Origin: an uncultured Gammaproteobacteria bacterium
GTDB lineage: Bacteria; Patescibacteriota; Patescibacteriia; UBA2591; UBA6264
DNA length: 10,295 nucleotides
Assembly (NCBI GenBank): GCA_964507075.1
Contig: CAZDOL010000015.1
Coordinates: 1 to 10,295, forward strand
Direction of reading: 5' to 3'
In this document: positions 8,405-9,325 of the stretch, in pieces
Numbering within the stretch: position 1 is the first letter of the stretch
How the letters are laid out: every line of letters starts with the position of its first letter
Position numbers and translations under genes: made by a program
The notes under the pieces: generated by a model
Databases searched by the model: none
Seen by the model: only the letters and a program-made list of their open reading frames with translations
What the model was told of the DNA's origin: nothing

Positions 8405-9325
8405 GTGAAAATCAATTTTTTTGATTTCGACATGGACGAGTCCATTGTCGCCCCGATCATCTATGGCGAGAATCGCCATTACACGACAAATAGGGGTGTC
8501 ATAATTTCTAGCGAGGCGAGGCAGGAACTCAAAAAATTTTTGTCTGGTTTCAATGCTTCAGTTAACGTTGAGCAAATTCCGTATTATCGCATTGACATAT
8601 ATTTCAATAATCAATTCCTGTGGATACTTGAAATCAATGCGTCATTCGTGGATGGGTGGGGGACGGCACTGAATCTCTCTCGCGCAAGCAATATCGTAGT
8701 TGATCCAACGCGGCTCATATTTCCAAAACGATTCGTAACTAAAAGTAAAATGTATTTACCCGAACTTGAGCTGTTTATGTCTGAGATGTCCGCTTTGGGC
8801 ATCAACGACCATAGTATTTGTGACCATAGTATTTGCGAGCGGGACGGCAACAGCGCTGATCCGATTTATGTCTACGGACGTGTCGGATTAAAAAACCAGC
8901 CACACATATTACCATACGAGGGACTGCGGCTCGATAACAAGCTCAATCTCGGACTATTCAGTCGGGCGTGGAATGGGAACATGGTAAAAATTCCACGACA
9001 TTACATCAATCGTTTTGAGCCGTGGGAAAAAATTCCTAATGAAGTGGTTCTTAAATTTTGCGACAAGGGAAGCGAAGAGTGTCAGCGAGCAGGCGAGAGT
9101 GTTTTATTTAATAAGCCGACAGGTAAAGCGCCCTTTCTTAAGCGGTGTTATAAGGCAGAGACACTTCTAGCTCAAGATTTCGTACGTCCGTCGAAGCAAA
9201 ATAGAGACAATTGTCAGTTGGTTGTTTTAGTAATCGGCGATGAACCGATTACCGGCTATGTGCAATATAGCTGGAATAAAATTATCAACGACAATTCTAC
9301 TCATGGCCCTTTGTGTATCAATTAA
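8405..9325 (+). CDS. Hypothetical protein, probably a divergent glutathionylspermidine-synthase-like (GSP_synth / YgiC-YjfC type) ATP-grasp amidoligase
   Basis: The order of motifs resembles the GspS/YgiC/YjfC family:
- YYRIDIYFNNQFLWILEINASFVDGWG (cf. R.D....vkLLEyNaDtP)
- DNKLNLGLFSRAW (cf. sNKglmplLw)
- VVLKFCDKGSEECQRAGESVLF (cf. yVrKP.ysreGgnV.if)
- LLAQDFV (cf. miyQaF)
- LVVLVIGDEPITGYVQYSWNKIINDNSTHGPLCI (cf. ligsWiv.de.cGmgiRed..liT.d.SrfvPHyi)

The start is GTG with a strong SD. G+C is far above that of the neighbouring genes. This is recognition by eye, not an alignment. Confidence 0.45.
   Translation: MKINFFDFDMDESIVAPIIYGENRHYTTNRGVIISSEARQELKKFLSGFNASVNVEQIPYYRIDIYFNNQFLWILEINASFVDGWGTALNLSRASNIVVDPTRLIFPKRFVTKSKMYLPELELFMSEMSALGINDHSICDHSICERDGNSADPIYVYGRVGLKNQPHILPYEGLRLDNKLNLGLFSRAWNGNMVKIPRHYINRFEPWEKIPNEVVLKFCDKGSEECQRAGESVLFNKPTGKAPFLKRCYKAETLLAQDFVRPSKQNRDNCQLVVLVIGDEPITGYVQYSWNKIINDNSTHGPLCIN
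8807..8836 (+). repeat. In-frame 15-bp tandem duplication inside the 8405..9325 CDS
   Basis: GACCATAGTATTTGT (8807-8821) is immediately followed by GACCATAGTATTTGC (8822-8836). There is one synonymous difference. The pair encodes DHSIC-DHSIC. Confidence 0.95.

Follow-up and report, generated by a model that had tools for sequence, protein, structure and literature searches.

Leader-peptide attenuation controls pheST, an aminoacyl-tRNA synthetase operon of Escherichia coli. In the Firmicutes, the regulator YerC is HisR, the histidine repressor, and its box has the consensus cacTTTAnnnnnnTAAAgtg, a 20-bp palindrome (Ashniev et al. 2022, PMC9413887). The ATP-grasp enzymes YgiC and YjfC are peptide-spermidine ligases according to PMC12568646, which cites Pederick et al. 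2023 on this point, and they do not make glutathionylspermidine (PMC12506659). Here we analyze a 10,295-nt stretch of contig CAZDOL010000015.1 (hereafter, the window) and, in particular, its open reading frame (ORF) 8405-9325, which encodes a protein with the fold of these ligases and lies downstream of a HisR-like repressor gene and a leader with His codons. We consider it probable that this ligase gene is the first structural gene of a conserved operon, doubly controlled by histidine and with a role in histidine starvation, and that the high third-position G+C content (GC3) of its codons is a property of its whole family.

The ligase has its best fold matches in YgiC, YjfC and GspS (PF03738) and carries, as they do, an R-x-D-x11-E-x-N motif, here ahead of the putative nucleotide-binding Lys/Gln strands. 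It differs from them in sequence (~12% identity), in its trimmed pre-ATP-grasp N-terminal region and middle region, in the absence of the amidase domain found in GspS, and in its context, which consists of HisR, an attenuator and a HAD phosphatase; its family is seen only on contigs of the candidate phyla radiation (CPR) type. The leader shares with the enterobacterial his leader (RF00514) and the predicted His-leaders of Firmicutes (Ashniev et al. 2022, PMC9413887) tandem His codons immediately upstream of an anti-antiterminator, an antiterminator and a terminator that exclude each other, and a stop codon at which a ribosome that has not stalled would block the antiterminator. In contrast to those leaders, the leader peptide here is mostly the C-terminal extension of a real gene (HisR-like and, once, prephenate-dehydrogenase-like), and the genes predicted to be under its control are those of an ATP-grasp ligase, a HAD phosphatase and sometimes hisS, not those of histidine biosynthesis. 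As in pheST, a synthetase gene, in the window hisS, stands directly behind an attenuator with the cognate codons; the amino acid is a different one, and hisS is an occasional passenger (2 of ~29 loci), whereas the ligase and HAD genes are constant members.

Like the regulator of the Firmicutes HisR (YerC) regulon, the repressor belongs to TIGR02531, and the boxes upstream of its gene in most related loci fit the Firmicutes consensus and overlap the promoter. Unlike in that regulon, the hosts are CPR bacteria, which lie outside the coverage of PMC9413887; the regulator would be autoregulated and cotranscribed with its targets; these targets are the ligase and HAD genes (plus a LysE-type translocator gene in locus L001), not histidine biosynthesis genes or known histidine transporters; and the operator of the window is a variant palindrome. 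The HAD partner has the fold and all four motifs of the HAD-IA (C1-cap) phosphatases, such as beta-phosphoglucomutase and phosphoglycolate phosphatase, at only 15-18% identity to the solved structures. We take it not to be of the cap-less HAD-IIIA type represented by the HisB-N histidinol-phosphatase.

Much of bacterial diversity belongs to the CPR bacteria, which have a minimal metabolism and are mostly uncultured, and little is known of how they respond to a shortage of amino acids. The locus would extend HisR regulation and classical attenuation to these organisms, with the tail of a real gene as the leader peptide, and a family of "hypothetical" proteins without Pfam domains gains a fold, a catalytic motif and a histidine-linked physiological handle, and with them a testable hypothesis and a few candidate substrates.

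The ligase family and its phosphatase partner

The ligase gene (8405..9325, + strand) starts with GTG and encodes 306 aa. A large protein database holds 118 homologs, all of ~300 aa, all annotated as "hypothetical" and none with a Pfam domain; those that are named belong to Parcubacteria, Microgenomates and other CPR groups. When 1.84 billion representatives were searched with a family profile, only ~100 clusters were found, and the profile reached no annotated ATP-grasp family and no GSP_synth protein among them. Going by sequence, these ~300-aa proteins form a family not described before, and it is seen only in CPR/Patescibacteria-type contigs. Our literature search found nothing on the ligase family, on attenuators in CPR bacteria or on a link between ATP-grasp enzymes and histidine; the graspetide ligases of CPR bacteria (PMC8939145) we judged to be a different ATP-grasp group.

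An AlphaFold2 (AF2) model was computed on the family alignment, with a predicted local distance difference test score (pLDDT) of 95.5 and a predicted template modeling score (pTM) of 0.93. An earlier note on this DNA, made from the letters alone, had claimed an ATP-grasp fold, and the structural comparison bears this out: the top Foldseek matches in the PDB are 7uk6, 7uk8 and 2io8, with E values from 3e-12 to 1e-10 and a probability of 1.0. E. coli YjfC (7uk6, E 3.4e-12) ranks first, followed by YgiC (7uk8/7uka) and the synthetase domain of GspS (2io7-2ioa), and then by trypanothione synthetase, Mfla_0391 and eukaryotic glutathione synthetases; the query TM-score (TMq) of the best matches is 0.61-0.64. 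All 44 PDB matches at E<=1e-3 are GSP-synthetase-like or glutathione-synthetase ATP-grasp enzymes, and ITPK1 and PurK come out weaker. The kinship with PF03738 holds at the level of structure, where the closest fold relatives (Foldseek ranks 1-19) and the motif order are the same, and not at the level of sequence or profile membership: the window ligase gives no match to PF03738 (GSP_synth) at the gathering score, and a single one of 59 family members appears, at E 0.13. Since no hidden Markov model (HMM) or profile signal leads to PF03738, these proteins are filed as a separate family with a GSP-synthetase-like fold.

Residues invariant in the 59 sequences include R62, D64, E76, N78, D83, W85, K217, K221, Q257, Q271 and H300. 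In a local HMM alignment, R62-x-D64-x11-E76-x-N78 aligns, with identical spacing, with R316, D318, E330 and N332 of GspS in RMDFCMDERGLKVYEYNA. We take R-x-D ... E-x-N to be the signature of ATP-grasp enzymes made up of the Arg and the Mg2+ ligands (phosphate). This motif lies near the N-terminus and the Lys/Gln motifs near the C-terminus, which is the GSP-synthetase/YgiC/YjfC motif order that had been read from the sequence; K217, K221, Q257 and Q271 follow one another as expected, and a non-significant hhalign alignment pairs Q257 with Q336 of YgiC. The model and the motif thus predict that ORF 8405-9325 encodes a catalytically intact ATP-grasp carboxylate-amine ligase. It is indeed compact, being ~80 aa shorter than E. 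coli YgiC (386 aa) and well below the domain size of PF03738 proteins (about 380-390 aa), and its length is typical of the family (291-345 aa). A 15-bp tandem duplication at 8807..8836 (+ strand), perfect but for one position, encodes DHSIC-DHSIC in the only low-confidence loop of the AF2 model; it is present in the 99%-identical homolog P0001 and absent from all other homologs.

To place the gene in its neighborhood, one genome per species was scanned, which gave 30 loci (here numbered from L001), and the window proteins were compared by tblastn; the ligase gene belongs to a conserved cluster in 29 related loci. The gene order is nearly everywhere the same: the TrpR-like gene, which encodes the HisR-like repressor, lies ~150 nt upstream of the ligase gene, and the HAD gene 20-80 nt downstream. 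When all flanking ORFs were clustered, the ligase was found in 27 loci, the HisR-like gene directly upstream in 21 and the HAD gene in 20, and no other flanking family occurred in more than four loci. A neighborhood analysis had been proposed in the earlier note as a check on co-occurrence with the HAD gene, and it came out in favor: the HAD gene lies 3' of the ligase in ~20 of 27 loci, and ligase identity and HAD identity rise and fall together across loci (Spearman 0.75). The HAD subfamily has the same narrow distribution, with 91 matches that share contigs with ligase homologs. Functional coupling of the ligase to the adjacent HAD gene is supported.

The HAD-IA phosphatase gene of the window (9371..9943, + strand; Pfam HAD_2 and Hydrolase) encodes 190 aa. 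Its start is probably the ATG at 9371 rather than position 9344, because homologs begin at MKT, and the hairpin at 9331-9354 would therefore be intergenic. Motifs I-IV are DxD, T/S, K and DD; of their residues, D7, D9, T105, K140 and D161 are invariant and D165 is nearly so. The AF2 model has a pLDDT of 94, and Foldseek gives generic C1-cap HAD-IA matches (3kbb, E 4e-8); this structure search yielded no clue to the substrate, and there is no NCBIfam equivalog. In locus L012 (6963-8477) the product is 504 aa long, because the HAD ORF continues into a domain like MurB (FAD_binding_4 plus MurB_C); this single case could be a real fusion or a lost stop codon.

Between the two genes lies a GC-rich, terminator-like hairpin, AGGGGGTACA tcaa TGTATCCCCT plus CTCTTTTTAT (9331..9364, + strand). 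The GC-rich 3' hairpin that had been noticed by eye was recovered by the terminator scan (9331-9354 plus a T-run) and, on folding, has an energy of -16.2 kcal/mol (z = -3.3). A strong hairpin is found in this intergenic space in ~21 of 23 loci, with unrelated sequences; only in the closer relatives does a T-run follow. The element is conserved and either terminator-like or stabilizing.

Candidate histidine operators and the predicted leader attenuator

The HisR-like repressor of the window (6603..6917, + strand; 104 aa), of the YerC/YecD family and TrpR fold, matches Pfam Trp_repressor with E 4.6e-26 and NCBIfam TIGR02531 (yecD_yerC) with 85.1 bits, against a cut-off of 42.2. Its PDB matches are 3FRW, 3KOR and 3G1C, with E from 1e-15 to 1e-18 (3G1C, E 1.7e-15). 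In 22 of 26 related loci, one or two boxes (a)CTTTA-N6-TAAAG(t), with the pattern ACTTTAcTTGAcTAAAGT, occupy positions near -40 and -22 relative to the HisR-like gene start and match the HisR consensus; in these loci the first box contains TTGACT. The promoter region of the window gene holds an 18-bp palindrome, GTGTTAgtgtatTAACAC (GTGTTA-N6-TAACAC; 6567..6584, + strand), found by palindrome scan, which would be a candidate operator, as the form that the HisR box takes in this lineage. Candidate operator sequences are ACTTTACTTGACTAAAGT and, in the window, GTGTTAGTGTATTAACAC.

Two loci have a further HisR box. In L001 (51-724), a perfect HisR box, CTTTAGTTTGCTAAAG, precedes a LysE-type translocator gene (PF01810, E 6e-42) directly upstream of the HisR-like gene; the translocator is a candidate histidine-regulated transporter. 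In L028 (5533), of a distant subfamily, the HisR-like ORF has no His tail and a second HisR box lies between this ORF and the ligase gene, which suggests direct repression instead of attenuation.

Twenty-eight leaders between the HisR-like gene and the ligase were compared. The order of elements is two to three His codons, a hairpin, the motif GGTTGTCTTGAT including the stop codon, a spacer and a strong terminator. HH or HHH, with mixed CAT and CAC, occurs in 24 of the 28 leaders and always in an open frame; because CAT and CAC interchange, the His run is conserved as codons. The stop codon is found 36-48 nt past the first His codon in most leaders and 24-57 nt past it in three, and in the loci other than the window the His codons precede the terminator by 60-77 nt. 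In most loci, the HisR-like ORF ends in frame with the His tail (...HH(H)-x7-9-G-L-x-stop); unusually, then, the end of a repressor gene provides the leader peptide. In L004, L024, L026, L027 and L030 the tail comes without a repressor domain, as a separate ORF of 20-25 aa, and in L014 (413-4094) it is fused to a prephenate-dehydrogenase-like ORF, not to HisR, and is followed by the ligase, a short HAD gene (143 aa) and hisS.

In the window, the His tail is encoded by a 26-aa leader ORF, MDKLKKKIDNNHHSKFSLLPKRLICF (6889..6969, + strand), with its ATG at 6889, His codons at 6922-6927 and stop codon at 6967-6969, in the +1 frame relative to the HisR-like ORF. A run of seven A (6904-6910) lies just before the His tail, and with one A fewer the two ORFs would be fused as in other loci; the window may have an independent 26-aa leader, an assembly indel, or real frameshifting or slippage. 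Three alternative structures follow on the + strand. In the minimum-energy fold, the anti-antiterminator hairpin (regions 1:2; 6923..6970) pairs the His codons with the UGAU at the stop codon. The antiterminator (6948..7005) pairs its 5' strand, AAAGAGGTTGA (6948-6958), with TCAACCCCTTT (6995-7005), which holds the 5' arm of the terminator. The terminator itself (6999..7026), identified by the terminator scan and by the covariance model described below, is CCCCTTT gaag AAAGGGG followed by ATTTTTGTTT.

The behavior of the leaders was then simulated by folding, the terminators being picked with a positional limit that keeps the 1:2 hairpin out. When the RNA is free, region 1 and the His codons are paired to region 2 and to the UGAU of the stop, and 15 of 28 leaders form the terminator; a ribosome set at the stop codon raises this to 26 of 28. 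Behind a ribosome stalling at the His codons, the RNA takes the form of a single long hairpin, in which region 2 plus GGTTGTCTTGA is paired with ...AAGGCCAACC plus the terminator 5' arm. This antiterminator hairpin has the same topology in all divergent loci, with a mean z of -2.2 and z < -2 in 17 of 28 leaders.

A covariance model, R1, was built on the terminator state, and antiterminator pairs were thus counted on alignments fitted to the other structure. R1 finds the leader at the expected position in 23 loci and matches the window end to end at 6919-7027 (14.2 bits, E 0.0017, in a 301-nt search). Antiterminator pairing reaches 87.8% in the 23 leaders, compared with 41-67% in slid registers, and 97.4% in a set of 12 leaders, compared with 40-72%, with three compensatory pairs. 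In these 12 leaders the 1:2 helix is 90% paired and the terminator helix 95%, the terminator state being 92% paired overall. A duplex test, matched versus mismatched, gave p = 0.0014. With a plain MAFFT alignment of the leaders, RNAalifold recovered the terminator only, and the structure-aware covariance-model alignment was needed for the rest. No Rfam family (His_leader, T-box) matched the leaders at gathering thresholds, and the E-value mode returned sub-threshold noise only; a T-box riboswitch was rejected, as there is neither an Rfam match nor a T-box sequence. In its layout, the leader is a classical ribosome-mediated attenuator of the kind that would sense His-tRNA.

On several leaders (L001-L008, L013, L015 and others), the covariance model gives scores for the reverse strand, too, of up to 47 bits; regions 1 and 3 are alike, as are regions 2 and 4, and the element is therefore nearly dyad-symmetric. 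Two further elements lie between the attenuator terminator and the ligase start (L001 1149-1198 and equivalents). One is an inverted repeat with arms 13-15 nt apart, which covaries as TTGCC...GGCAA, TTGTC...GACAA or TTGTCT...AGACAA. The other is the conserved motif TAGTTCTTTAAAAAAGGAGG, the only element of the two left in the window (8373-8400), where its TAG is the stop codon of hisS. Repeat and motif could be a promoter, an operator or a translational enhancer.

Between attenuator and ligase, the window has hisS, the gene for histidyl-tRNA synthetase (7053..8375, + strand; Pfam tRNA-synt_His, E 8e-44, plus HGTP_anticodon). The order is thus attenuator (6919-7027), hisS, 29 nt, ligase with its 5' motif and Shine-Dalgarno (SD) sequence, hairpin, HAD gene, tRNA-His gene and terminator. 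The only other locus with hisS nearby is L014, with the order leader, ligase, HAD gene, hisS, and two independent recruitments of hisS fit with histidine control. This regulatory context (HisR operator, His-codon attenuator, hisS and tRNA-His), which the earlier note had missed, is the most informative clue to function.

Proposed operon and competing explanations

The analysis shows the protein's fold and catalytic motif, the conserved gene order, the HisR boxes, the alternative RNA structures and the pattern of composition; the direction of regulation, the ligase activity and the role in histidine physiology are inferences that go beyond this. The operon would comprise a promoter with one or more HisR operators, the HisR-like repressor gene, the His-codon attenuator, the ligase gene, the hairpin and the HAD-IA phosphatase gene. 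With ample histidine, the HisR-like repressor presumably shuts the promoter; with ample His-tRNA, the ribosome would run to the stop codon inside the G-rich strand, and the terminator would form. When His-tRNA is scarce, the ribosome would stall at the His codons and the freed G-rich strand would pair with the terminator 5' arm, forming the antiterminator, so that RNA polymerase could read into the ligase gene (in the window, also into hisS) and then past the second hairpin into the HAD gene. If the ligase works like its fold relatives, it presumably turns a carboxylate into an acyl phosphate and couples this to an amine, and the HAD enzyme presumably removes a phosphate from the substrate or the product.

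Most likely, the ligase/HAD pair helps the cell to acquire histidine or to adapt to its scarcity. We put the chance that the ligase substrates include histidine or a related compound somewhat short of even, and a peptide or protein substrate seems unlikely. Still doubtful is the proposal that the two enzymes are the effector of a new histidine-starvation response of CPR bacteria, a two-enzyme route that supplies or spares histidine under the control of an attenuation leader made from the 3' end of the repressor gene; such a route might, for example, convert a scavenged histidine-related compound or make a histidine-linked amide.

Several points weigh against reading the locus as a histidine-controlled ligase operon. 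Searches of Pfam, NCBIfam and the PDB (phmmer) with the window ligase gave no significant match, and hence no ATP-grasp link in Pfam, nor did a profile of 59 family members against Pfam and the PDB. By hhalign, the ligase alignment matched a YgiC/GspS alignment, itself shallow (77-100% identical apart from GspS), with a probability of 1.6% and E 0.032 over the C-terminal 60 residues only, and the assignment of the Lys/Gln residues to the nucleotide site follows from motif order, not from residue-level superposition. Box and palindrome scans found no canonical HisR box upstream of the HisR-like gene of the window. The window elements are weaker than those of its relatives, with an antiterminator of -9.5 kcal/mol (z -1.1) and a terminator of -9.7; the window His codons do not share the frame of the HisR-like ORF; and each leader has only two to three His codons, compared with seven in the enterobacterial his leader. 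A tRNA-His gene near the cluster is found in the window only. ATP binding, ligase activity, readthrough and HisR binding are all predictions, and an ATP-consuming ligase has no obvious means to raise the histidine supply, which makes the physiological role a guess.

The composition of the gene invites another explanation, namely that the ligase gene, with or without the HAD gene, was recently acquired from a GC-richer donor whose composition it still reflects. The window is AT-rich (overall GC 0.326), and the ligase ORF was compared with the 11 others of its 12 ORFs. The five G+C hand counts of the earlier note (29/60, 27/60 and 30/60 in the gene, 13/60 and 18/60 in comparison lines) are all exact, and the shift they indicated is real and confined to one ORF; its size, given as about 20 points, shrinks to a mean difference of ~11, because the comparison lines were among the lowest (24 of the 156 lines outside the gene reach at least 25/60). 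The GC content is 0.428 in the ligase ORF and 0.317 in the remaining window; in 300-nt segments, it is 0.41-0.45 over 8401-9300 and falls to 0.26 by 9301-9600, just past the stop codon. The GC3 is 0.459, compared with 0.21-0.30 in all 11 other genes (z = 7.3), a shift of ~21 points; lying at third codon positions, it is not caused by amino-acid composition.

The ligase gene is also, as had been said, the only one in the window that combines a GTG start with a consensus SD: AAGGAGGT (8393..8400, + strand), 4 nt before the GTG at 8405, has no comparable counterpart at the other 11 ORFs. Moreover, the ligase and HAD proteins are 74-78% identical to those of L001 and L002, while the HisR-like protein is only 38-47% identical to any other and has a different operator palindrome, and the flanks of the three-gene module differ at every locus. 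All this would fit a transfer. The SD lies inside a conserved motif, TAGTTCaTTTAAAAttAAAAAAGGAGG, and the motif AGTTCTTTAAAAAAGGAGG around it is kept in L001-L008 and L013.

What decides against a foreign island is the family. In 26 loci, the GC3 of the ligase, HAD and HisR-like genes was compared with that of flanking genes. Ligase GC3 is 0.553±0.09 and nearly independent of the flanks (slope versus host GC3, 0.24), HAD GC3 is 0.362±0.08, and the GC3 of the HisR-like gene follows the host (slope 0.79). The ligase exceeds the HAD gene in 18 of 18 loci. In AT-rich hosts ligase GC3 is above that of its neighbors by a mean of 0.19, and the excess seen in the window recurs in L009 (0.49 versus 0.21 in the host), L011 (0.51 versus 0.19) and L015 (0.69 versus 0.36). 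High GC3 therefore characterizes the ligase family and depends little on host composition; the anomaly in the window is part of this and does not mark a one-gene island, and the bias comes neither from amino-acid composition nor from a simple one-off transfer. Furthermore, the HAD gene is AT-rich everywhere, GC-rich hosts included, so that the composition of a donor is unable to explain both genes; the gene sits at its family-typical place in a conserved operon; and no mobility genes, repeats or integration scars were seen.

A recent foreign acquisition is thus unlikely, and the "compositionally foreign single gene" of the earlier note is instead a member of a three-gene cluster conserved across diverse CPR lineages. 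Of the small, horizontally acquired module that had been suggested, the coupling to the HAD gene stands and the foreign origin does not; some exchange of ligase+HAD pairs among CPR lineages is plausible, given the identities to L001 and L002, where identical residues have identical codons at a frequency of 0.59-0.67. As an observation in its own right, two adjacent and co-evolving genes, ligase (~0.55) and HAD (~0.36), keep opposite, host-independent GC3 biases. For composition-based island calling this is a caution, as a strong GC3 outlier can stem from a family-wide bias.

[quoted passage not shown] YgiC and YjfC, which are nearest in structure, attach spermidine to the C-termini of peptides, as stated in PMC12568646. 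However, compensatory changes preserve the RNA helices, whereas the central part of the tail is free to vary; in L027 and in the window, the reading frame or the peptide differs and the RNA elements persist; the C-terminal residue is variable (S, R, V, A, F, W, H); and the HisR boxes, hisS and the placement of the His codons are left unexplained. Peptide modification is, for these reasons, improbable.

We regard it as equally improbable that there is no attenuator and that an ordinary terminator merely ends the HisR-like gene, whose His tail binds a metal or ligand, while the ligase has its own promoter: a terminator after a gene is commonplace, the TTGYC-N13-15-GRCAA repeat and the motif TAGTTCTTT between terminator and ligase could hold a promoter, and the window antiterminator is weak, but five loci keep the tail without a repressor domain and L014 has it on an unrelated enzyme, the antiterminator, which uses the terminator 5' arm too, is conserved with compensatory changes, CAT and CAC interchange, and the window element stands directly before hisS, 84 nt past the HisR-like stop codon.

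Other features of the window

Downstream of the HAD gene, the window has a tRNA-His gene (GUG; 10086..10159, + strand; ARAGORN, and Rfam tRNA with 49.6 bits), followed by a terminator found by the terminator scan (10182-10218). An involvement of Thg1-like G-1 addition was considered and rejected, as G-1 is encoded in the genome at 10086, opposite C73. The idea that a tRNA gene served as an integration site was also rejected, as the tRNA genes near other loci are of many kinds and none is tRNA-His.

The genes of the window are typical of CPR/Patescibacteria; besides the HisR-like gene, hisS, the ligase ORF, the HAD hydrolase and tRNA-His, they include those of a penicillin-binding protein, fmt, thyX, ribose-1,5-bisphosphate isomerase and a form II/III RuBisCO. 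At 3874-6528, the genes for ribose-1,5-bisphosphate isomerase (IF-2B family), a cytidylyltransferase-like protein and the form II/III-type RuBisCO large subunit are consecutive and overlap at their ends, which is how the nucleotide-salvage (AMP) pathway genes are arranged in CPR bacteria and archaea. The 11 ORFs of the window other than the ligase have no recognizable SD sequence, and the organism appears to use SD-independent initiation for most genes.

Finally, seven loci (L001, L007, L010, L015, L021, L023 and L026) come from metagenome-assembled genomes labeled as Bathyarchaeota, Gammaproteobacteria, Methylococcaceae or Pseudomonadales, yet they carry the same CPR-type cluster. These labels probably reflect mis-binned contigs or automatic taxonomy.

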